NCBI GenBank assembly: GCA_963664395.2
Contig: OY761159.2
Coordinates: forward strand, 1,344,001-1,408,000
DNA length: 64,000 bases
Direction: 5' to 3'
Origin: Candidatus Binatia bacterium
GTDB taxonomy: Bacteria > Desulfobacterota > Binatia > Bin18
Shown here one piece after another: positions 4,386-33,418 of the stretch. The first letter of the stretch is position 1, and each line of letters begins with the position of its first letter. The notes below the pieces were generated by a model. The model saw only the letters and a program-made list of their open reading frames with translations, did not search any database and was not told the origin of the DNA. The position numbers were made by a program, and so were the translations under genes.

Positions 4386-6577
4386 ATGTCCGCCCACGCC
4401 GCCTTCAAACTCGTCTCGGACTTTCAGCCCCAGGGTGACCAGCCCCAGGCGATTGATCAACTCACCCAAGGCTTGCAAAACGGTCTGGATCGGCAGGTTT
4501 TGCTGGGCGTCACCGGCTCGGGCAAAACCTTTTCCATGGCGCATGTCATTGCGCGGCTGCTAGGTCGTTAACCGGCCGGCACTGGTGATGGCGCCCAATA
4601 AAACGCTGGCAGCCCAGCTCTACAGCGAATTCAAAGAACTCTTCCCTGAAAATGCGGTGCGCTACTTCGTCAGTTATTACGATTACTACCAACCCAACAG
4701 AGATTAAAGGCTACGAACGCCTACGTCCCCCAGAGCGATACCTATGTGGAGAAAGACGCCTCGATTAACGAAGAAATCGATAAGATGCGCCACTCCGCGA
4801 CCAAGGCGCTATTAGAACGGCGCGATACCATTATCGTCGCCAGCCCGGTGTCTCGTGTATCTATGGGCTCGGGTCGCCCGAATCATATTTCGACCTCATC
4901 CTCTTTGTCGAAGAGAGCAGCGAAGTGAACCGCGACGCGCTGCTCCGCAAGCTGGTCGATATTCAGTACCAGCGCAACGACTTTGACTTTCATCGCGGCA
5001 CGTTTCGGGTACGGGGCGATGTGGTCGAGGTCTTTCCTGCCTATGAAGAGAGCCGGGCGATTCGGATTGAATTCTTTGGCGATACGGTTGAGGCGATTGC
5101 CGAGATCGATCCGCGCAGAGGCAAGGTCCTGCGGCGGCTGGATAAAATTGCTATCTATCCGGCAAGCCATTATGTCACCACCTCCAGCCGGCTGAAGCGC
5201 GCCACGCAGGCCATCCAAGAGGAACTGACCGAACGGCTCACAGAGCTGCAAAAGGAAGACAAGCTCGTTGAAAGCCAGCGCTTGGAGCAACGCACCCGGT
5301 ACGATTTAGCCCTCTTACGAGAAATGGGCTTTTGTCCGGGTATCGAGAATTACTCGCGTCATCTGGATGGCCGACAACCAGGCGAACCGCCCCATACGCT
5401 GCTCAACTATTTTCCTGACGACTACCTCGTCTTCATTGATGAAAGCCATGTCACCGTTCCTCAGATTGGCGGCATGTACCGCGGCGACCGCTCGCGCAAG
5501 ACCACCCTGGTGGAGTATGGTTTTCGTCTGCCCTCCGCGCTGGATAACCGCCCCCTCAGCTTTCATGAATTCGAGCACCGCGCCGGCCAGACCGTGTATG
5601 TCTCAGCCACGCCGGGTGACTATGAACGCGAGCAGGGCAAAGGCCGCATTGTTGAACAGCTCATTCGTCCCACCGGCCTGCTGGACCCCGAAATTGCGGT
5701 CCGGCCAGCCGGAGAACAGGTGGATGATCTCCTGGAAGAAATTCGGCTGCGGAGTGAAAAAGGCGAGCGCGTGCTCGTAACCACACTGACCAAACGGTTG
5801 GCTGAAGACCTGACCGATTACTATCAGGAAATAGGCATTCGGGTGCGCTATCTCCACTCGGATATCGACACCCTTGAGCGCGTAGAAATCATTCGCGCCC
5901 TACGCCAAGGCAGCTTCGATGTCCTGATTGGCATTAACCTGCTGCGCGAGGGACTCGATATTCCTGAGGTGTCTCTGGTGGCCATTCTCGATGCGGACAA
6001 AGAGGGCTATCTGCGCTCTGAGCGTTCACTGATCCAAACCATTGGCCGCGCCGCTCGAAATATCAATGGGACCGTCCTGCTCTACGCAGATAAAATAACC
6101 AATTCGATGCAGCGGGCCATCGATGAAACCCTCCGGCGGCGGCGTCTCCAATCCAAGTATAATAAGAAGCACGGCATCACACCTGAAAGTATCCGCAAAG
6201 CCCTGTCTTCGCCACTCGTGACGGTCTATGAAGCCGACCATGTGACGGTTCCCATCGTTTCTGAAGACAGCGCAGACTATAGCGCAGTCCGCGACCTGCC
6301 CAGGCTGATTGAACAGACCCGCAGGGAAATGAAGGCGGCGGCGGCGGCGCTGGACTTTGAACAGGCCGCAGAACGCCGGGATCGCTTACAAAATTTGGAA
6401 CGGCGTGCCCTGGGTTTGCCTGGTGAAGCAGCCGTCTCTCCAGTAGGGATAGGTTTGAAACCCGCCCCTACTGCGCCAGGCACGAAACCGGCCACAAGAG
6501 GCCGCAAGAAAAAGACCCCTTCACAGAACTCAAGCAAAGCCCTGTCCCGAGGCCGCCGCGCGCGCTGGCGGGGTTGA
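4386..6577 (+). pseudogene. uvrB: Excinuclease ABC subunit B, interrupted by short insertions near 4560, 4696-4718 and 4845-4856 (probably sequencing error); main ORF 4925..6577
   Basis: [63 protein letters not shown] and the UVR motif [11 protein letters not shown], spread over several frames. Confidence 0.93.
6443..6471. repeat. GTAG-type REP-like palindrome inside the uvrB 3' extension
   Basis: gtagggataggtttgaaacccgcccctac. Confidence 0.7.
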
Positions 6578-7396: not shown

Positions 7397-7696
7397 TTGA
7401 TCCACCTACTGACCGAGCGGTTGGGGCTGGTCAATGAGGTTGTTCCGCGTGACCAGCTCGAAGCAGAAACCATGAAACTCGCCCAACGCATTGCCCTGCA
7501 GGACGCCTATGCGCTGCGGATTGCTAAATTCTCGATGAACCAGATGCAAGACGAAGCCGGCTTTCGGACCGGCGTCACCGGCGCGTTTCAATCGTATGCA
7601 CTCACGCGCATGTATCGTCTGGAAAAAGGCGAAGACACATTTGCGGGGCCGAAGCGTGCCAAGGAACGCGACGCGGCGTTTGGGGATAATCGCTAA
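7397..7696 (+). pseudogene. C-terminal fragment of an enoyl-CoA hydratase/isomerase
   Basis: ERLGLVNEVVPRDQLEAETMKLAQRIA is the crotonase C-terminal motif; the catalytic N-terminal part is absent. Confidence 0.75.
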
Positions 7697-7699
7697 GTG

Positions 7700-8644
7700 C
7701 TACTCCAAACGAAAGCAGGGAAACAGCTCAGCCGCAAGGTGGCGCAATTGATCCATGGTCGCGGCCGCGGGTACAGCCGGAAGAAGCGTGATATGCCGTG
7801 CCCCGGCGTCAATATAGCGCTGTAGCGTGGCGGCGCACTCCGAAGCCGGACCGAGCGCGCTGTACTTATCAATAATCGTATCAAAGGATTGGTTGTACTC
7901 GGTTGACAGCGTGCGCACAGCGTTGGCTCTCGCTTCTTCGTAGGTCGGGGCGATGCAGAAATAGAGGACAACGCCTCCAGTAAACGTGGTACGCGACGCT
8001 TCGTCGCGTTGCTGCCAGTGCTCCAGCGCCTTGTCCAAACTCGTACGAAAACGCTCTGGCGTTACAAAATACGCGAGCCAGCCGTCCCCATACGTCCCGG
8101 CCCGCTTCAACGCGGCATCAACTCGGCCACCGACCCAGATAGGCGGATGCGGTTGCTGAAGTGGACGCGGGGCCATATTGGCATTCTCAAATTGCAGGAA
8201 CTGTCCATCAATCGTCGCCGAAGGATCGGTCCAGAGCGCCTTAATCACCCGCAGCCCTTCAGTGGCACGCCGGCCCCGTTCTCGTAACGCAATGCCGCAG
8301 GCTTCATATTCTTTTTGAAACTCGCCTCCAACACCAACGCCTAGAATGGATCGCCCACCGGACAGCCAATCCAATGTGCCTATCATTTTGGCGACCAGGG
8401 TCGGATTCCGTAACGGCAGGAGCAGCACCCCGGTGCCGAGTTTGATTGTTGTCGTACGCGCGGCAAACGCCCCCAGCATGGTAAACGGGTCAAGCACCGG
8501 GCTGTGCCAGAGCACATGGTCGCGGTAGAAAAGAATGTCATAGCCAAGCTGTTCGATTTCCTCGGCCCAACGACACAGCGTCGGTCCGGAAACCAGCCCG
8601 CCCCCAAACCCGCCTAAGGTTGTCCCGAATGTGACCTGGCTCAT
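7700..8644 (-). CDS. LLM-class flavin/F420-dependent oxidoreductase
   Basis: LDPFTMLGAFAARTTTIKLGTGVLLLPLRNP, LSGGRSILGVGVG, QQPHPPIWVGG. Confidence 0.9.
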   Translation of the reverse strand: MSQVTFGTTLGGFGGGLVSGPTLCRWAEEIEQLGYDILFYRDHVLWHSPVLDPFTMLGAFAARTTTIKLGTGVLLLPLRNPTLVAKMIGTLDWLSGGRSILGVGVGGEFQKEYEACGIALRERGRRATEGLRVIKALWTDPSATIDGQFLQFENANMAPRPLQQPHPPIWVGGRVDAALKRAGTYGDGWLAYFVTPERFRTSLDKALEHWQQRDEASRTTFTGGVVLYFCIAPTYEEARANAVRTLSTEYNQSFDTIIDKYSALGPASECAATLQRYIDAGARHITLLPAVPAAATMDQLRHLAAELFPCFRLE

Positions 8645-25869: not shown

Positions 25870-27813
25870 CTACAGCCGGATACGCACCTCAATCGCCCAG
25901 AACACGGCTTGGGTCGATTCCTCGACGGTGTGACCAACCGTCGTCAGTCGGAGCGCCGGCTCCGGCGGCGGTTCATACGGGGAGGAGAGGCCGGTAAATT
26001 CCTGAATCTCCCCTGCCCGCGCCTTATGATACAGCCCTTTCACATCGCGCTCCTCACACACTTCAAGCGGGGTGTCTACATACACCTCAAAAAAGCGGTC
26101 AGCGCCGATGATCTCTGCCGCGTGTTGCCGGTCGGTGTGAAACGGTGCAATAACCGGCACAAGCACAATCACGCCAGCCTGATTAAAGAGCCGCGCGACT
26201 TCGGCAATGCGGCGGATATTTTCCGCGCGGTCACCTTCCGAGAAGGTGAGGTCTCGATTCAGACCAAAACGCAGATTATCACCGTCGAGCCGATAGACAT
26301 GGAATCCTTCCGTATGCAGACGCTGCTCAAGCTGTTCCGCAATGGATGATTTTCCAGAGCCGGACAAACCCGTCAGCCAGACCGTCAGCGCGCGTTGCCG
26401 CAGGGCGCGCTGACGCTCAGCAACTGAAATCAACCCGGCTTCCGCCCGGATATGGACTGACTGTTGACCTCCTGTCCGAACGGACACGTTCGGCTGAGCA
26501 AGGGGTTCCGGCCGGCGGTCAATAATCATCCCGGCACCGACCGTATTATTCGTCAGACGGTCAATGACGACAAAGGCACCGGTCGCGCGGTTCTTACGGT
26601 ACGGATCAAAGGCAAGCGGCTTTTCGAGCTCAAATGCACACCGTCCGATTTCATTGAGGGCGAGTTGAGCGGCGTCCTCACGGTGGAGGGTATTCACGTC
26701 CATACGATACCGCACCTCGGCAATCACCCCCGGCGTTGTGTTGGTGGTGTGCTTGATAAAATACTGCTTGCCAGGCTGCATGGGCTCTTCAGCCATCCAC
26801 ACCAGCATGGCTTCAAAGCGCGTGGCTATGAGGGGCACATTGTTGGGATGAACGAGCATATCTCCACGACTGACGTCGATTTCGTCTTCAAGCGTCAGGG
26901 TCACGGCCAACGGCGGCATGGCCTGCTTCAGTTCCCCCTCAAAGGTATGGATGGCTTTCACCCGGCTTGTTTTGCGTGACGGAAACACCATGACTGCATC
27001 GCCCGGGCGCACGATGCCGGAGGCCACCGTTCCACAAAAACCGCGAAAGTCCGGATTGGGGCGATTGACGTATTGGACCGGAAAACGAAAGTCGATCAGA
27101 TTGGTATCCGAAGCAATATAGACGTGCTCCAACAGGTGCATCAGCGGGCTGCCCGCGTACCACGGCAGGTGCGCGCTTTTGTTCACCACGTTATCGCCGC
27201 TCAGCGCCGCCATGGGCAGGAAGTGCACCTCGCCCAGCTCGAGTCGGGCGGCAAAGTCGGTATAGTCTTTGACAATCCGCTCAAAGGCCTCTTGGCTGTA
27301 GTCAACCAGATCCATCTTATTGACGGCAACAATAATGTGCTTGATGCCCAACAGAGAGGCGATAAAGCTGTGTCGCCGAGTTTGGGTCAGGACGCCATAG
27401 CGGGCATCGATCAGGATAATAGCCAAGTCGCACGTCGACGCGCCGGTTGCCATGTTCCGGGTGTACTGCTCATGACCAGGGGTGTCGGCAATAATGAATT
27501 TTCGTTTGGCGGTCGAAAAATAGCGATAGGCAACATCGATGGTGATGCCCTGTTCACGTTCGGCTTTGAGGCCGTCGGTCAGCAGGGCGGGGTCAAATTC
27601 CGTATCTGTCGTGCCATGTCGGACCGAGTCTTTTTTCATCGCCTCAAGCTGATCCTCGTAGATCATCTTGGAGTCGTATAAGAGCCGGCCGATAAGGGTG
27701 CTTTTGCCGTCATCCACACTGCCGCAGGTCAGGAAGCGCAGCAGGTCCTTGCGTTCATGTTGGGCAAGATAGGCTTCAATATCTGTCGCGATCAGGTCAG
27801 ACTGGTGAGACAT
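25870..27813 (-). CDS. cysNC: Bifunctional sulfate adenylyltransferase subunit 1 / APS kinase (CysN/CysC)
   Basis: [33 protein letters not shown]; C-terminal [11 protein letters not shown] and RDVKGLY. Confidence 0.97.
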
Positions 27814-27855
27814 ACCGGAGTACCGTTCTTTCCGTGGGAGCGCGGCCAACTTGCC

Positions 27856-28836
27856 TTAGAAGTAGCCTTCCTTTTTCTTCTCTTCCATGGAGCCGGACTG
27901 GTCGAAATCAATGACGCGGCCTTGCCGTTCGGACTGCGTAGCCAGCAGCATTTCCTGAATAATCAACGGCAGGGTGTCGGCCTCGGATTCAATTGCGCCC
28001 GTCAGCGGATAGCAGCCCAGGGTGCGAAAGCGGACTTTCTTCAACTGCGGTTGTTCGCCCGGATGGAGCGGCAGACGGTCGTCGTCTACCATAATGAGCA
28101 CCCCGTCGCGCTCGACAACCGGACGCTCCTTGGCAAAGTACAGCGTCACAATCGGGATGTGTTCGCGGTAGATGTATTGCCAGACATCCAGCTCGGTCCA
28201 ATTCGACAACGGAAAAACACGGATGCTCTCGCCTTTATCAAGCCTGGAATTATACAGATTCCACAGTTCGGGGCGTTGGTTCTTGGGGTCCCAGCGATGG
28301 TTGCGGTCACGGAACGAATACACCCGTTCTTTCGCCCGTGATTTCTCTTCATCACGCCGCGCGCCCCCAAAGGCCGCATCAAATCCGTACTGATTGAGTG
28401 CCTGTTTGAGCGCCTGCGTCTTCATCACATCGGTGTGCTTTTTGGAGCCATGCGTCATGGGACTGATACCCGCTTTTACCCCGTCCGGGTTGATATACAC
28501 GATGAGGTCGAAGCCGAGTTCGTGTTTGATATAGGTATCTCGGAAGGTGATCATCTCTCGGAATTTCCAGGTCGTATCAACGTGCAGCAGGGGGAAGGGC
28601 AGCGTACCCGGCGCGAACGCTTTGCGGGCCAGGTGCAGCATGACCGCCGAGTCTTTGCCGATGGAGTACAGCATGACCGGATTGTCAAACTCAGCCGCCA
28701 CCTCCCGAATGATATGAATACTCTCGGCCTCAAGACATTTGAGATGCGTGAGGGAATAGGAAGTCTTTTCATGCGAGGGCTGCTGATTGGACGGATTCCC
28801 AAGGGTCTCCACTGCCGACACTCCTTCCTCAATCAC
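27856..28836 (-). CDS. cysD: Sulfate adenylyltransferase subunit 2
   Basis: [58 protein letters not shown]. Confidence 0.98.
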
Positions 28837-28858: not shown

Positions 28859-29599
28859 TTAGCCGGCAGGCGTCGAACAGACCGCGCAGTGCGGATTCTT
28901 CTCAATCGTCTGCTCGGTAAAATGAAACGCCGGAACTGTCCACTCCAGCAGTTTGGGCTGGCTGTCCGCAGCGGCCTGCACGATGATTTTGAGGGCTTCG
29001 GTCGCCTGCTGCGCACCGGCAAAGAGCGCATGTGGCGCGTCTAGCGGGAGGGCTGCGAGCGTTGTTCCGGCCTGCCCTCCATCACACCCTACTACGGAGA
29101 AGAGACAGCGCAGGCACGGCCACTCGTCCCTGTCACCTCGACTCACGAATAGTTGTCCGCGCTCCTGGGTGGCGACTGTCCACACGAACGGCTTCTGCCG
29201 GGCGTAACACACATCGTGTAAGGCAGGCGTTGTTGCCACTATCAGATCATACTGTTGACCCAATTGGTCAGGCTGCTGGTCGGGCCGGTCGGTATGGGTC
29301 ACAATCGTGCAATCGGGGTTGAGACGCCTGAGCGTGTTCGCTATGGGCGACGTATCCGGTCCACGGCCCGGTCCACAGAATTGTTCAGCCAATGCGGAAA
29401 AGACCAGTGGAGCCTTGGAGCCGGCCACACCTATAGTCCCAACTCCGGCAGCGGCCAGATAGAATAGAGCGGCGGCGGCTAACGGCCCGTCCCCGTCAAC
29501 ATAGACGCGACTCCGGAGAATCTTTTCCTGCCCTGTACCGCCAACCTGAGGCAGGATGATCTGTCGGCTGTAGCGTTCAATCTGAGTGTCTCCGAGCAT
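28859..29599 (-). CDS. Degenerate ThiF/MoeB-family protein (RYSRQ present, P-loop lost)
   Basis: IERYSRQIILPQVGGTGQEK and CLRC/CAVC present; DGDGPLA replaces GxGxxG; no SNLxRQ. Confidence 0.8.
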   Translation of the reverse strand: MLGDTQIERYSRQIILPQVGGTGQEKILRSRVYVDGDGPLAAAALFYLAAAGVGTIGVAGSKAPLVFSALAEQFCGPGRGPDTSPIANTLRRLNPDCTIVTHTDRPDQQPDQLGQQYDLIVATTPALHDVCYARQKPFVWTVATQERGQLFVSRGDRDEWPCLRCLFSVVGCDGGQAGTTLAALPLDAPHALFAGAQQATEALKIIVQAAADSQPKLLEWTVPAFHFTEQTIEKNPHCAVCSTPAG

Positions 29600-29648
29600 G
29601 GATCATTCCGAAGCAGTGAAGAACGTACGGTCAAAGAGAACGGCTCAG

Positions 29649-30662
29649 TCAGGCCGCTCCCTGTGCCTGGCTTTTAGTGTGACGGGCGTGACGCTGGTTA
29701 TACTCTTTCCAGCCGGCCCACAGATTTGTACTCAGATATTTGTCTCCAAAATCCGGGAAGAGCGTCACGACGCTGCCTGCCTCGATTTCACGGGCAACCT
29801 GGAGTGCGGCCCACATCGCCGCACCGGACGATTGGCCGACTAAGATCCCTTCTTCCCGGCCGAGTCGATATACCGTTTCATAGGCATCTTCGGTCGAAAC
29901 ATTGATCTTTCGGTCAAGCCGCTCTTCAGAGTAAATGCCGGGTACGATCGAACTGTCCATATGCTTGAGCCCCTCAAGCCCATGGAAGGCGTCATCCGGT
30001 TCCACCCCAATAATCCGGATATCCGGATTTTTCTCCTTCAGGTAGCGCCCGGTTCCCATCAGTGTGCCGCCGGTCCCCATGCCGGCCACAAAATGGGTTA
30101 TTTGCTCTTTAGTCTGCCACCACAGCTCCGGTCCGGTTGTCTCATAGTGGGCCAAGGGATTATGCGGATTAAAGTATTGATCCGGTTTGAAATAGTGCTC
30201 GGGATCCTTCTTCAACATGTCCCGACACAGTTCCAAGGCGCCATCCGAGCCCTCCATGGGGCTGCTGAAGATCATCTTTGCACCATACGCGGCAATGATT
30301 TTTTTCCGTTCCATACCAACGTTGGCCGGGATACATAGCTTGACCGGATAGCCCAGCACTGCCCCAATCATGGCCAGCGCAATCCCGGTATTCCCGGATG
30401 TCGAGTCGAGAATAATTTTGCCCTGGGTCAGCGCGCCGGTCTCAAGGCCCTTGCGGACCATACACAGCGCCGGGCGATCTTTGACCGACCCACCAGGATT
30501 GAAGCCTTCGAGCTTGGCATAGATTCGAACGCCTGGGGCAATAGGCGTGGTCAGTCGGGTAATTTCGAGCAGCGGCGTATTCCCGATCAGATGCAGGACG
30601 GACGGAACACGCAGGGGTCCTGCCGGAGGGGGCCCCTCGGTCGGACTAGGCAGGAGTGACAC
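29649..30662 (-). CDS. cysM: PLP-dependent cysteine synthase, CysM-like
   Basis: IGNTPL, KLEGFNPGGSVKDR, TSGNTG, GMGTGGT, FPDFGDKYLS. Confidence 0.85.
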   Translation of the reverse strand: MSLLPSPTEGPPPAGPLRVPSVLHLIGNTPLLEITRLTTPIAPGVRIYAKLEGFNPGGSVKDRPALCMVRKGLETGALTQGKIILDSTSGNTGIALAMIGAVLGYPVKLCIPANVGMERKKIIAAYGAKMIFSSPMEGSDGALELCRDMLKKDPEHYFKPDQYFNPHNPLAHYETTGPELWWQTKEQITHFVAGMGTGGTLMGTGRYLKEKNPDIRIIGVEPDDAFHGLEGLKHMDSSIVPGIYSEERLDRKINVSTEDAYETVYRLGREEGILVGQSSGAAMWAALQVAREIEAGSVVTLFPDFGDKYLSTNLWAGWKEYNQRHARHTKSQAQGAA

Positions 30663-30665
30663 GCC

Positions 30666-30941
30666 TCATCCTCCGGCAATAGCAGGCACGATGGACACTT
30701 CGTCGCCCTCTTTCACCGGAGTGTCCAGACCATTGAGGAAACGAATGTCCTCACCATTCACAAAGATATTGACAAAACGACGGACCGCGCCAGCTTCATC
30801 ACACAACCGTTCTTTAATACCAGGAGAATTGTTCTCCATATCATTGACCAACGCCCCAACCGTGGCTCCATCGGCCGAGACTGCTTCCGCACCTCCAGTA
30901 AAGCGGCGCAACGGGGTTGGGATACGTACCTGAGCACTCAT
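30666..30941 (-). CDS. MoaD/ThiS-family ubiquitin-like sulfur carrier, CysO-like
   Basis: VRIPTPLR...[16 protein letters not shown]...SIVPAIAGG with a free C-terminal GG. Confidence 0.92.
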
Positions 30942-31039
30942 GTTCACTCCCTCCTGATTCAGAATCACTCGTCTACTCTTTCGAGCTTCTACTGTTACGT
31001 TTTTGCTCCGGTCTGACAATCACCCTGCCTGATTTTCAT

Positions 31040-31813
31040 TCAGACCGGAGTGCAGAGTCTTTCCAACTCATAGGCTTCGGAGTGTAAGCCCGTAATCGTC
31101 CGCGGCGTGCCGCACAGCGGACAGTGCGGGCTGGGGCGCACCCGGACCTCTCGCCAGCGCAGGGCGAGGGCGTCATAGGTCAGCAAGCGGTCGGTCAGGA
31201 GTTCTCCCGTTCCGCTCAGATATTTTACCGCCTCGGCAGCCTGAACACTGCCCAGACTGCCGGCCAGGCTGCCAAGGATACCGGCCTCCTGGCAGGTGGG
31301 ATTCTCATCGGGATGAGGCGGAACCGGGAACAGGCAGCGCAAACACGTCGTCTGATGGGGTAAGACCGTCAATGCCTGACCGTGGAACTGGACAATGCCG
31401 GCGTAAGAGAGTGGTTTGTTGAGCAGCCCGGCACCGTCATTGATCAAAAATTTTGTAGCCACGCCATCCGTTCCGTCAATAATAAAATCATAGCCGGCAA
31501 AGACATCCGCGAGATTGCCCGCATGCAGCCGCTGGTTATAGGTCAGCACCGTTATCGAGGGGTTGAGTTGCTGAATTTTTTCCCTGGCCGAATCGACCTT
31601 TGGCTTTCCTATATCCGGGGTAAAGTGCAAGATTTGCCGTTGCAGGTTTGACAGCTCGACACTGTCCGAATCCACCAGACCAATCGTTCCCACACCCGCG
31701 AGGGCGAGCCCAAATGCGGCCGGAGAGCCAAGTCCGCCAACGCCAACCACCAGGACTTTCCCCTCACGAACGCCGGTGGGAATCGCCGCTTGTGCCGGTT
31801 TCCGCTTCTTCAT
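31040..31813 (-). CDS. moeB: HesA/MoeB/ThiF-family E1-like adenylyltransferase lacking the N-terminal RYSRQ segment
   Basis: VVGVGGLG, DSDSVELSNLQRQ, DGTD, CLRC, PTCQEAG, CPLC. Confidence 0.85.
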   Translation of the reverse strand: MKKRKPAQAAIPTGVREGKVLVVGVGGLGSPAAFGLALAGVGTIGLVDSDSVELSNLQRQILHFTPDIGKPKVDSAREKIQQLNPSITVLTYNQRLHAGNLADVFAGYDFIIDGTDGVATKFLINDGAGLLNKPLSYAGIVQFHGQALTVLPHQTTCLRCLFPVPPHPDENPTCQEAGILGSLAGSLGSVQAAEAVKYLSGTGELLTDRLLTYDALALRWREVRVRPSPHCPLCGTPRTITGLHSEAYELERLCTPV

Positions 31814-31854
31814 TTTCCTGACTCATTTCCTTGGCGTATCCGACAGCGTATGGC

Positions 31855-31884
31855 AAAAAGCCTCTTCCCAACAGGAAAGAGGCT
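31855..31884 (-). terminator. Intrinsic terminator after bamD
   Basis: Minus strand agcctctttcc-tgtt-gggaagaggc followed by ttttt. Confidence 0.75.
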
Positions 31885-31918
31885 CGGCTTCGATCTCTCT
31901 TTGCCCATGCTAAAAGTC

Positions 31919-33418
31919 TTATTCGTCCTCAAACTCGAAATCTATTTCCTCAATATCGATACCTAGAACGGCCCCTCGTCCTGTTCTGACCGCGACATCT
32001 GATCGTTTCACAGAATCAGAAGAGGCTTCGGCCTCATATGTTTCGACTTGCTCAACACCTGACTCAACCGGCTCAACTGCGACAACTTCTTCGTCGCCCT
32101 CGGCCTCTTCTGCCACATCTTCGCTGACTTCAAAGTCGTCGTCTTCAATCATGTCATCGACTGATGCAGTCTCTTCAACACGCGTGCTTGCAGGGCTTGC
32201 AGGGCTTGCAGGGCGGGCATTCTCAGCTTCTTCTTCAGCGCTCAACACGCCAGCGGCTTCAAGCGCTTCAGTATCATCTTCAAGCTCAAAATCATCGGCA
32301 TCGATTTCAAGGGTGAGTATTTCGTCGTCAGAAGGACCACGGCCCTCCCCGGCGGAGGCCTCATTCTCGGCCTGTTCCAATGCTCCGAAGTCGTCTTTAT
32401 CATCCTCGAACTCCAGCGCTTCGATGTCAGCAGACTCAAAGCCTTCTCGCTCTGCTTCCAATGCCTCCAAGTCCACTTCTTGATAGGTGTCGCCCACTTC
32501 GTAGGACCGTTCATCATCTTCAAAGGCGTCATTAAGGGCACGCTCTTCCTGCTCGGTCTCTTTCTCCGCGGCCAGCCTTTCCGTGTCAGCCTCCGTCCGG
32601 GCCAGGCGTTCCCCGTCTTCTTGTTTTTTCAACTCGGAAACAAGCAACAATAATGGATCGACTCCAGCAACAGGGACTCCGTTCGAGCCGACGGCTTCGT
32701 CCTCTTCAACTTGGCCGTCATTGATATTTGCCATGCGGGCGGCCTGCGCCCGGGCCGCCAAATCGGCCAACTCGACATTGCCTTCTTCGCTCAAGATCCG
32801 TTCGAGCCGGCCCAAGGCTTCCGCGGTGGCATCGGTCTCGGAGTATTGCTCAATCAGGCTGCGCAGGCGTGCTTTTGTGGCAGCAACATTACCACGTTTC
32901 TTATTGAAATTCGCAACGAGCAGTTCGTGGCCGGCCAGGGTATCACGGGCAGATTTGCTCTTTTCTTCCGCTTGGAGGACAAAAGCACTTTCCGGATAGC
33001 GGTCTATCACCTCTTGGAAAAATCCGTCTGCCCGGCGCGTCACCGCCTGATCACGATCCATGGAACGGATCTGGCTATAGTTCGTAATCCCAAGAAAATA
33101 CTTGACAAACGGCATATGTCGGCTGGTCGGATACGCCCGCTCAAAATCCTTAAAGGCTCCCGTGGCCTCGGCGTAACTTTCTTCCATAAAAAGCCCATAG
33201 GCCGCTTTGAGCTGGGATTCCTCGGCATACGGGTTGAGCGGATATTGATCCAGCAATTCCTGATACTGCTCGGAAGCCCCCAGATAGTCCTCGTCGGTAA
33301 AAGACTCGGCTGCCTGCTGATAATACTCTTTTGCCGAGGGGCGTCTGAGGGTTGCTGAGCACCCCCACACGCCCAGCAGAACGATGCTCAAACAGAGGAC
33401 CCATATTCGTTCGGACAT
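31919..33418 (-). CDS. bamD: Outer-membrane assembly lipoprotein BamD with a long acidic C-terminal extension
   Basis: Lipobox VWGC; TPR helices LLDQYPLNPYAEES, FERAYPTS, DRDQ, LAGHELLVA. Confidence 0.85.
   Translation of the reverse strand: MSERIWVLCLSIVLLGVWGCSATLRRPSAKEYYQQAAESFTDEDYLGASEQYQELLDQYPLNPYAEESQLKAAYGLFMEESYAEATGAFKDFERAYPTSRHMPFVKYFLGITNYSQIRSMDRDQAVTRRADGFFQEVIDRYPESAFVLQAEEKSKSARDTLAGHELLVANFNKKRGNVAATKARLRSLIEQYSETDATAEALGRLERILSEEGNVELADLAARAQAARMANINDGQVEEDEAVGSNGVPVAGVDPLLLLVSELKKQEDGERLARTEADTERLAAEKETEQEERALNDAFEDDERSYEVGDTYQEVDLEALEAEREGFESADIEALEFEDDKDDFGALEQAENEASAGEGRGPSDDEILTLEIDADDFELEDDTEALEAAGVLSAEEEAENARPASPASPASTRVEETASVDDMIEDDDFEVSEDVAEEAEGDEEVVAVEPVESGVEQVETYEAEASSDSVKRSDVAVRTGRGAVLGIDIEEIDFEFEDE

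Follow-up and report, generated by a model that had tools for sequence, protein, structure and literature searches.

How can an activating enzyme of the ubiquitin type (E1) do without the arginine-bearing N-terminal segment of its family, and why should a degenerate paralog encoded in the same operon have kept just that segment? Both questions are raised by a 64,000-nt stretch of the genome of Candidatus Binatia bacterium (assembly GCA_963664395.2, contig OY761159.2, positions 1,344,001 to 1,408,000; called here the window, which always means the whole stretch). In this window seven minus-strand genes run head to tail and encode BamD, an E1-like protein that we call A, a small carrier protein ending in GG, CysM, a second E1-like protein that we call B, CysD and a CysN/CysC fusion (Table 1). 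We consider it probable that A and B form an asymmetric A:B enzyme whose single active site receives the N-terminal arginine segment of B, and that this enzyme originated from two complete paralogs by complementary loss. A and B probably work as a pair in the manner of the two-subunit eukaryotic ubiquitin-type activating enzymes, and what they represent is a variant of a known design and not a new kind of enzyme.

Complementary losses in two E1 paralogs

The open reading frames (ORFs) of A and B lie on the minus strand where a preliminary description of this DNA had placed them, and gene families were assigned throughout with Pfam and NCBIfam profiles. In A, residues 16-232 cover only positions 19-237 of the Pfam ThiF profile (PF00899, cut-off 28.1 bits for A and B alike) and residues 15-235 align to residues 29-248 of Escherichia coli MoeB, with nothing equivalent to MoeB residues 1-28, including Arg14. 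The conserved catalytic set is given in a review as Gly41, Arg73, Lys86 and Asp130 (PMC12355090; this and the other papers cited by accession were available in part and are cited for what those parts state). A has R59, K72 and D116 aligned to R73, K86 and D130 of MoeB, together with the GVGGLG, SNLQRQ and DGTD motifs, two CxxC motifs and PTCQEAG, and 23 orthologs show little or no variation at R59, K72, D116, the glycine loop, the four zinc cysteines and Cys174. A retains its own dimer-face helices as well. A hidden N-terminus was sought upstream and in other frames and was not found: an in-frame TGA (31825-31823) stands 12 nt 5' of the ATG of A, and the motif [ED]R[YFW]xR[QH] occurs in the six frames of the window in B only. 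The earlier claim that A carries the catalytic motifs, lacks the RYSRQ segment and has none encoded upstream is therefore borne out by the start of the MoeB alignment at residue 29 and by this stop codon. A reaches none of the NCBIfam equivalog cut-offs for MoeB, ThiF, MoeZ and UbaA, its best match being PRK08762 MoeB with 277.7 bits (cut-off 449).

B, which shares 33% identity with A, aligns to MoeB residues 4-248 with its Arg12 at MoeB Arg14 and with both MoeB R11 and R14 present; its N-terminal ERYSRQ...GGxGQ segment is preserved, as is its dimer face. All four catalytic positions (the equivalents of the glycine loop, R73, K86 and D130) have been lost, as B reads DGDGPLA at the glycine loop and SALAEQ at SNLQRQ, has an aspartate at the position of MoeB Lys86 and carries a deletion over DxTD. 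The preliminary description had recognised the loss of the P-loop and of SNLxRQ and had listed the zinc motifs of B as present. Both points hold in this genome (where the zinc motifs read CLRC and CAVC), and the zinc motifs fail as a conserved feature, one or both of them being lost in several families. The two genes are currently annotated as ThiF/MoeB adenylyltransferases; B should not count as an enzyme.

With at least 120 clusters, which range from 40 to 98% identity, the B family is large, and RYxRQ is present in 120 of 120. Its N-terminal segment is almost invariant and the region of the former glycine loop is variable, even with insertions. Throughout a set of 32 degenerate B proteins that spans the class, R12 and Q13 never vary, R9 is retained in 31, and the mean column identity is 0.69 over residues 5-28 versus 0.21 over the remainder. 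The ratio of nonsynonymous to synonymous substitution rates (dN/dS), calculated for nine pairs hand-picked from close loci and not for all pairs, was 0.24-0.41 for B, 0.075-0.34 for A and 0.04-0.28 for CysM. Judged by these sequence comparisons B is under purifying selection, though constrained less tightly than A and CysM. Taken together with the invariant R12 and Q13, the conserved N-terminal segment and the modelled interface described below, the dN/dS values mark B as selected and not as decaying. In families f91, f94, f96 and f98 the B protein is 119-168 aa long and matches positions 1-48 of the ThiF profile alone, which is the very part that is missing from A.

Exactly at the former glycine loop, some B proteins carry a 13-residue tandem duplication (L040:6974-7771, plus strand) or an insertion of 13-16 residues (L057/L131, the G110 type). 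Insertions at this place would fit a loss of nucleotide binding.

Co-variation of A and B across the class

Two samples of related loci were used. On the side of B, 33 B-type loci on named contigs (L040-L072; best 80 of 539 kept) make up a sample chosen by B. On the side of A, class-wide searches of 151 genomes (including the unpublished G282, which enters the search tallies only) retrieved the E1 adjoining a carrier and CysM; 31 class genomes, from all 19 sampled families, were then classified, and these overlap the named contigs (L057 and G110, for example, are one contig).

The gene order BamD, A, a ThrC-like gene in some, carrier, CysM, B, CysD and CysNC recurs across the named loci, with B encoded in the operon of A at all loci and intact as an ORF at every locus examined across the class. 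Carrier and CysM are paired in 29 of the 33 named loci, and the other four have a carrier without a CysM match. None of the 30 complete A neighbours has RYxRQ, not even when the reading frame is followed upstream to the preceding stop codon, and GxGGxG and SNLxRQ are kept in all 30; RYSRQ is present in 33 of 33 B proteins, and the glycine loop, SNLxRQ and DxTD in 0 of 33.

Each of the 31 classified genomes shows one of three states. A lacks the segment, and a degenerate gene in the position of B retains it, in 25 genomes, including G271 of family f3; A is complete, with RYSRQ present, and B is absent in four (G233, G202, G224 and G308, of families f86, f93 and f95); both paralogs are complete in two (G076 and G303, of family f3). 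Among the 31, an arginine-less A never occurs without a degenerate, segment-bearing gene in the position of B, and a complete A never occurs together with a degenerate B. Searched with the B profile, the four genomes without B yield only A and an E1 of about 400 aa. The preliminary description had looked for support to the co-occurrence of the two gene types and to the N-termini of A orthologs, and it is upheld in both respects: the arginine-less A is always found with a degenerate, finger-bearing B (25 of 25), and RYxRQ persists in orthologs of A only in genomes with no B or with an intact one. The B of G271 still has a glycine loop and reads TALRRQ at SNLxRQ. Every related locus that was examined repeats the complementary pattern, which is therefore no accident of a single genome.

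Among the genomes searched the split is seen only in Binatia, bar one partial case. In genome G020, outside the class, contig C159 (L122) encodes a finger-less A-like E1 beside a carrier and a complete E1 with RYSRH, a glycine loop and TNLQRQ (ORFs 7522-8307 and 4796-5623, both on the minus strand), that is, an arginine-less subunit with a partner of still-active type; the A-like E1 groups with the Binatia A clade on the tree. The search for B-like proteins outside the class gave phylum matches that covered only the first ~60 residues of B, and 10 of the 10 retrieved proved to be ordinary complete E1s of the SNLNRQ subtype. Two sub-threshold ThiF matches in the same genome as the window, considered as further N-terminal E1 pieces, are dehydrogenase-like Rossmann proteins instead.

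Predicted complex and proposed mechanism

A model of A and B with ATP gave an ipSAE (a score of the predicted interface) of 0.93 (0.94, 0.93 and 0.93 in the separate runs) versus 0.01 for the best of three controls; 58 of 80 solved complexes and 2 of 110 mismatched pairs attain that mark. The runs shared at least 92% of their contacts and had a partner pLDDT (predicted local distance difference test) of at least 83. In the model, residues 8-13, 15-16 and 18-19 of B contact residues 54-55 and 57-61 of A, which belong to the SNLQRQ motif. The modelling of A:B with ATP that the preliminary description had suggested thus passed its controls and places B 8-13 against A 54-61. Beyond position 28, the residues of B in the modelled interface have a conservation of 0.31 versus 0.19 for the others (permutation p 0.0007).

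From the sequence states, the co-variation, the selection on B and the passing model we infer that A and B bind each other, what the arginine does and how the pathway runs. A would hold the sole site for ATP and for adenylation of the carrier, and B, as a pseudoenzyme, would sit on the dimer face of A with its N-terminal segment (Arg12) laid over the ATP site of A. The segment given by B would be the one that is exchanged reciprocally between the subunits of the MoeB and ThiF homodimers, where ThiF Arg11 and MoeB Arg14 are described as arginine fingers coming from the neighbouring subunit (PMC13139853), in agreement with the trans-acting N-terminal arginine invoked in the preliminary description. 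An A:B stoichiometry is likely; in families whose B is reduced to a short N-terminal protein, A2B2 would be possible. The operon is best read as a sulfur-carrier route to cysteine. CysD and CysNC would activate sulfate, the E1 would adenylate the GG C-terminus of the carrier, the carrier would become a thiocarboxylate, and CysM would take this thiocarboxylate as the sulfur donor for cysteine.

Alternative explanations

Could A do this work alone? It might form a finger-less homodimer like E. coli TcdA, and B might have a separate job in the pathway, such as holding the carrier, CysM or the sulfur donor, or regulating A. A has every cis-acting catalytic residue besides its own dimer-face helices, the arginine fingers are reported not to be essential in MoeB and ThiF, and E. 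coli TcdA is reported to have no such finger (PMC13139853). A alone may hence be active. For this reason the obligate A:B heterodimer of the preliminary description stands as a probable pairing, by the co-variation and the model, and not as an obligate one. The B proteins of 119-168 aa also favour A acting alone, as they are without the C-terminal helices that form much of the modelled interface, so that no one geometry can hold for every family. What this explanation leaves unaccounted for is that, in 31 of 31 genomes, A has RYxRQ precisely when B is missing or intact and is without it only alongside a degenerate B, and that the invariant part of B is the finger segment, i.e. the part missing from A. 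We hold it to be unlikely.

The reported dispensability of the finger and the reduced B proteins weigh at the same time against the asymmetric A:B enzyme that we prefer, and so do several further points. In yeast, inactive Tcd1 supplies Arg59 to active Tcd2, and replacing this residue (R59A) cost only 26% of the product (PMC13139853). The A of G285 (L167:4093-4863, minus strand) reads SNLQGQ and has a glycine at the position of MoeB Arg73, its 168-aa B keeping the finger; a sequencing error could account for this, or else the site may depend more heavily on the arginine of its partner.

The phylogeny counts on both sides, its clades for the asymmetric pair and the points that follow them against it, and all the trees are quick trees (left out of them were L133, a 145-aa fragment, the L131 pair, which is from the same contig as L057, and L123_3470, which has an internal deletion). 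A-position genes form one clade (SH-aLRT, the Shimodaira-Hasegawa-like approximate likelihood ratio test, 96) in which the complete forms without B are basal, and the three A genes of f3 form a clade of their own (SH-aLRT 96), so that G271 lost its A N-terminus separately. B-position genes likewise form one clade (SH-aLRT 100), with the complete f3 forms basal. B is not the sister of A and nests, weakly supported, among other complete E1s, which leaves the source paralog of B uncertain. When the N-terminal columns are left out of the alignment from which the A genes are treed, two changes are required to explain the trait, and with partner states labelled by hand the co-variation comes down to two phylogenetically independent pairs, both in the expected direction (sign test p 0.5). 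With only two such pairs significance is unreachable, and the co-variation is perfect but shallow. The remaining points against the asymmetric pair concern the model. The homodimers of E. coli MoeB and ThiF have been solved (PDB 1JW9 and 1ZUD), and a pass may reflect the memory of these structures, i.e. likeness and not binding; the modelling job moreover used custom alignments and a ligand, unlike the calibration of the tool.

A second alternative would have B partner not A but the third E1 of the genome, a full-length rhodanese-ThiF fusion (G000:C1:80746-81450; Rhodanese 77.4 bits, ThiF 290.6 bits), and so tie that enzyme to the cysteine operon. Such a protein does exist in the genome, no rhodanese domain was found by Pfam in A or B, both of which match the ThiF family alone, so that a sulfur donor is needed, and complex models can give high scores to close paralogs. 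Yet the third E1 has a RYARH segment of its own and a complete active site, the E1 of about 400 aa in the genomes without B is of the same kind and its state does not track B, and it is the N-terminus of A that the state of B tracks, B being in the operon of A. We regard this pairing as very improbable.

That B is a functionless, decaying duplicate and the short N-terminus of A an unrelated loss is scarcely credible: B is faster than A (end branches roughly 2-5 times longer, and dN/dS above that of A in 7 of 9 pairs), tolerates insertions at its former glycine loop and has lost zinc motifs in some families, yet it remains an intact ORF with the dN/dS given above, R12 and Q13 are invariant (32 of 32), and it is retained with the segment even at 119 aa.

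For the asymmetric A:B enzyme a longer history can be drawn, to which we give tentative credence and rather more doubt than assent: the full path would be preserved within one class, from a single complete E1 through two complete paralogs and complementary loss to a B of 119-168 aa that solely donates the arginine segment to a catalytic subunit with none of its own, in an obligate two-gene enzyme. The complete pairs in f3, the partly degenerate B in G271 and the very small B in four families would be its living intermediates.

Comparison with known systems

MoeB and ThiF have their fold and family in common with A, which has all of their ATP-site and zinc residues, and their substrate too is a GG-ending carrier of the ThiS/MoaD fold. 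Their homodimers contain two complete sites, with finger and site on each subunit, whereas in Binatia these features lie on two gene products.

In the activating enzymes of SUMO and NEDD8 the inactive subunit supplies the arginine. The preliminary description had drawn this eukaryotic parallel; its arginine part we keep as general background, and its other part, the make-up from an inactive and an active subunit, is confirmed in the literature. SAE1 and NAE1 are the inactive subunits and SAE2 and UBA3 the active ones, and in UBA1 Arg57 of the inactive domain helps to hold the gamma-phosphate site, as in MoeB (PMC12355090). SAE1/SAE2 and NAE1/UBA3 resemble A/B in having one inactive and one active adenylation domain in a pseudosymmetric pair. 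Canonical eukaryotic E1s differ in their catalytic-cysteine domains, their ubiquitin-fold domain (UFD) and the handing on to a ubiquitin-conjugating enzyme (E2), none of which is seen in the Binatia operon genes: the crossover-loop cysteine is the only catalytic-type cysteine of A, which has no canonical catalytic-cysteine domain, and the Pfam and NCBIfam profiles found no E2 or UFD among the operon genes and nothing pointing to protein conjugation. The Binatia pair arose independently of the eukaryotic E1s, from bacterial paralogs.

The closest logic, and a precedent inside the ThiF family that speaks for the asymmetric pair, is that of Tcd1-Tcd2, the dehydratase that makes cyclic N6-threonylcarbamoyladenosine (ct6A) in tRNA, where the inactive, finger-bearing Tcd1 completes the active Tcd2, no finger is returned and there is one active site per dimer. 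That enzyme is eukaryotic and membrane-anchored, has tRNA as its substrate and an extra C-terminal domain, is no carrier-protein E1, and responds only mildly to R59A. Among bacterial proteins, the known E1-like ones are described as homodimers, with the exception of BilD, in which an inactive and an active domain are fused (PMC10557695, a preprint), and BubCD is a homodimer (PMC11601596). BilD, of the Bil antiviral ubiquitination system, is a bacterial E1 whose inactive and active adenylation domains make a pseudo-dimer; a single polypeptide contains both of them together with a CYS domain and works with an E2 in defence against phages, whereas A and B of Binatia are separate genes. Neither a two-gene bacterial E1 nor the present Binatia operon was found described in a literature search that did not extend to the E1-superfamily survey of Burroughs and colleagues (2009) or to the supplements of papers.

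If the longer history drawn above is true, Binatia would have re-invented independently, in bacteria, the eukaryotic design of inactive and active E1 subunits, and this against a background in which bacterial E1-like enzymes are regarded as homodimers, the one described exception that was found being the fused inactive-active antiviral E1 (PMC10557695). Were a housekeeping sulfur pathway to use a complementary two-gene E1, it would follow that ordinary duplication and complementary loss can produce the asymmetric architecture known from the SUMO and NEDD8 E1s. On the longer history B would be a stand-alone finger donor through which the activation of the carrier, and hence cysteine synthesis, could be switched. 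The pair would also offer a natural test of the disputed weight of the trans-acting arginine of MoeB and ThiF, evolution having removed the arginine from the catalytic subunit and kept it in the partner alone.

The operon and its neighbours

Table 1. Positions of the operon features in the window (minus strand), with TGA-containing frames from related genomes in the last row
Feature	Position	Strand	Basis
BamD, conserved upstream neighbour outside the system	31919..33418	-	TIGR03302 176.6 bits, residues 7-228 of 499
Terminator-like hairpin 3' of bamD (12 bp stem, UGUU loop, then U-tract)	31858..31885	-	fold
A, catalytic subunit of the E1 (257 aa, ThiF/MoeB family), N-terminal arginine-finger segment absent	31040..31813	-	Pfam ThiF 236.3 bits
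CysO-like sulfur carrier, ThiS/MoaD fold, 91 aa	30666..30941	-	Pfam ThiS 68.8 bits
CysM-type cysteine synthase dependent on pyridoxal phosphate (PLP)	29649..30662	-	Pfam PALP 240.6 bits; NCBIfam cysKM 353.9 (cut-off 344.15)
B, degenerate E1 paralog (246 aa)	28859..29599	-	Pfam ThiF 80 bits
B residues 5-28, conserved arginine-finger segment (R9, R12 = MoeB R14, Q13)	29516..29587	-	alignment and model
CysD, sulfate adenylyltransferase small subunit	27856..28836	-	NCBIfam NF009214 540.8 bits (cut-off 413)
CysN/CysC fusion (sulfate adenylyltransferase large subunit and adenosine phosphosulfate (APS) kinase), last operon gene	25870..27849	-	NCBIfam NF004035 1009.4 bits (cut-off 715)
MoeB-like frames of phylum family f16 with TGA	G053:C10:43925-44659, G156:C37:5043-5777, G124:C13:36653-37384, G090:C9:191803-192537

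Mycobacterium tuberculosis has a protein-thiocarboxylate route to cysteine, CysO-CysM-MoeZ(-Mec), and the Binatia operon resembles this route in combining a GG carrier, a CysM-type synthase and an E1. The two differ in that MoeZ is a single rhodanese-containing E1, whereas the E1 of Binatia is split into two paralogs without rhodanese, and in that the Binatia operon adds CysD and CysNC and has no JAMM gene among its genes by family profiles. The only Prok-JAB (JAMM) match in the genome (G000:C1:895063-895407, L134; 71 bits) lies ~450 kb from the operon and is a candidate hydrolase for a CysO-type pathway.

The gaps between the genes from A to CysNC are short. The GG-ending carrier that the preliminary description had placed between A and B is indeed a protein of the ThiS family by both Pfam and NCBIfam, where it reaches 63.3 for SAMP1 (cut-off 60) and 50.6 for moaD_arch (cut-off 49.5). 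Its ORF extends to 31019, and the likely start is the ATG at 30941, giving the length listed; the orthologs begin at the equivalent methionine and are 91-100 aa long. CysM scores 385.6 with the cysM equivalog model, slightly below its cut-off of 394.2. The unrelated gene next downstream of CysN/CysC is PhoX-like.

The terminator that had been noted between bamD and A corresponds to the terminator-like 12-bp hairpin and U-tract, ~40 nt upstream of A, and with this hairpin after bamD it is A that opens the operon. The fold of 31814-31921 has -34.9 kcal/mol (z -2.18); the hairpin is not among the matches of a consensus scan. Within BamD, of 499 aa, the BamD/YfiO match stops near residue 228, and beyond it extends a long tail of low complexity, very acidic and conserved among relatives.

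At 98-100% identity, contigs from the RNA libraries of two studies match portions of the genes for A, the carrier, CysM and B. They are a weak sign that the operon is expressed, contigs being a matter of presence and not of transcription, level or ends; the stretches left uncovered and a single 24-letter joint of 30152 to 31625 (run X15) carry no meaning.

Further observations in related loci

In many relatives an extra PLP enzyme, absent from the window, stands between A and the carrier (L053:3736-5133, plus strand, 465 aa; PALP 228.9 bits, threonine-synthase-like by eye), and gaps of 1.2-1.5 kb between A and the carrier occur in L055, L058-L070, L137, L138, L152 and L153. At L065, L068, L069 and L072, the loci without a CysM match, the extra PLP enzyme may use the carrier in place of CysM. 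One relative has a 91-aa ORF between CysM and B (L008:5722-5997, plus strand) that is absent from the window.

The metagenome bins to which L053, L056, L059, L060, L066 and L070 belong are titled Enterobacteriaceae or Klebsiella pneumoniae and carry the operon of Binatia type from BamD and A through to B; the titles look mislabelled. In four genomes of the phylum family f16, a MoeB-like frame of 412-449 aa contains a single in-frame TGA (last row of Table 1), possibly a selenocysteine codon or a shared break.

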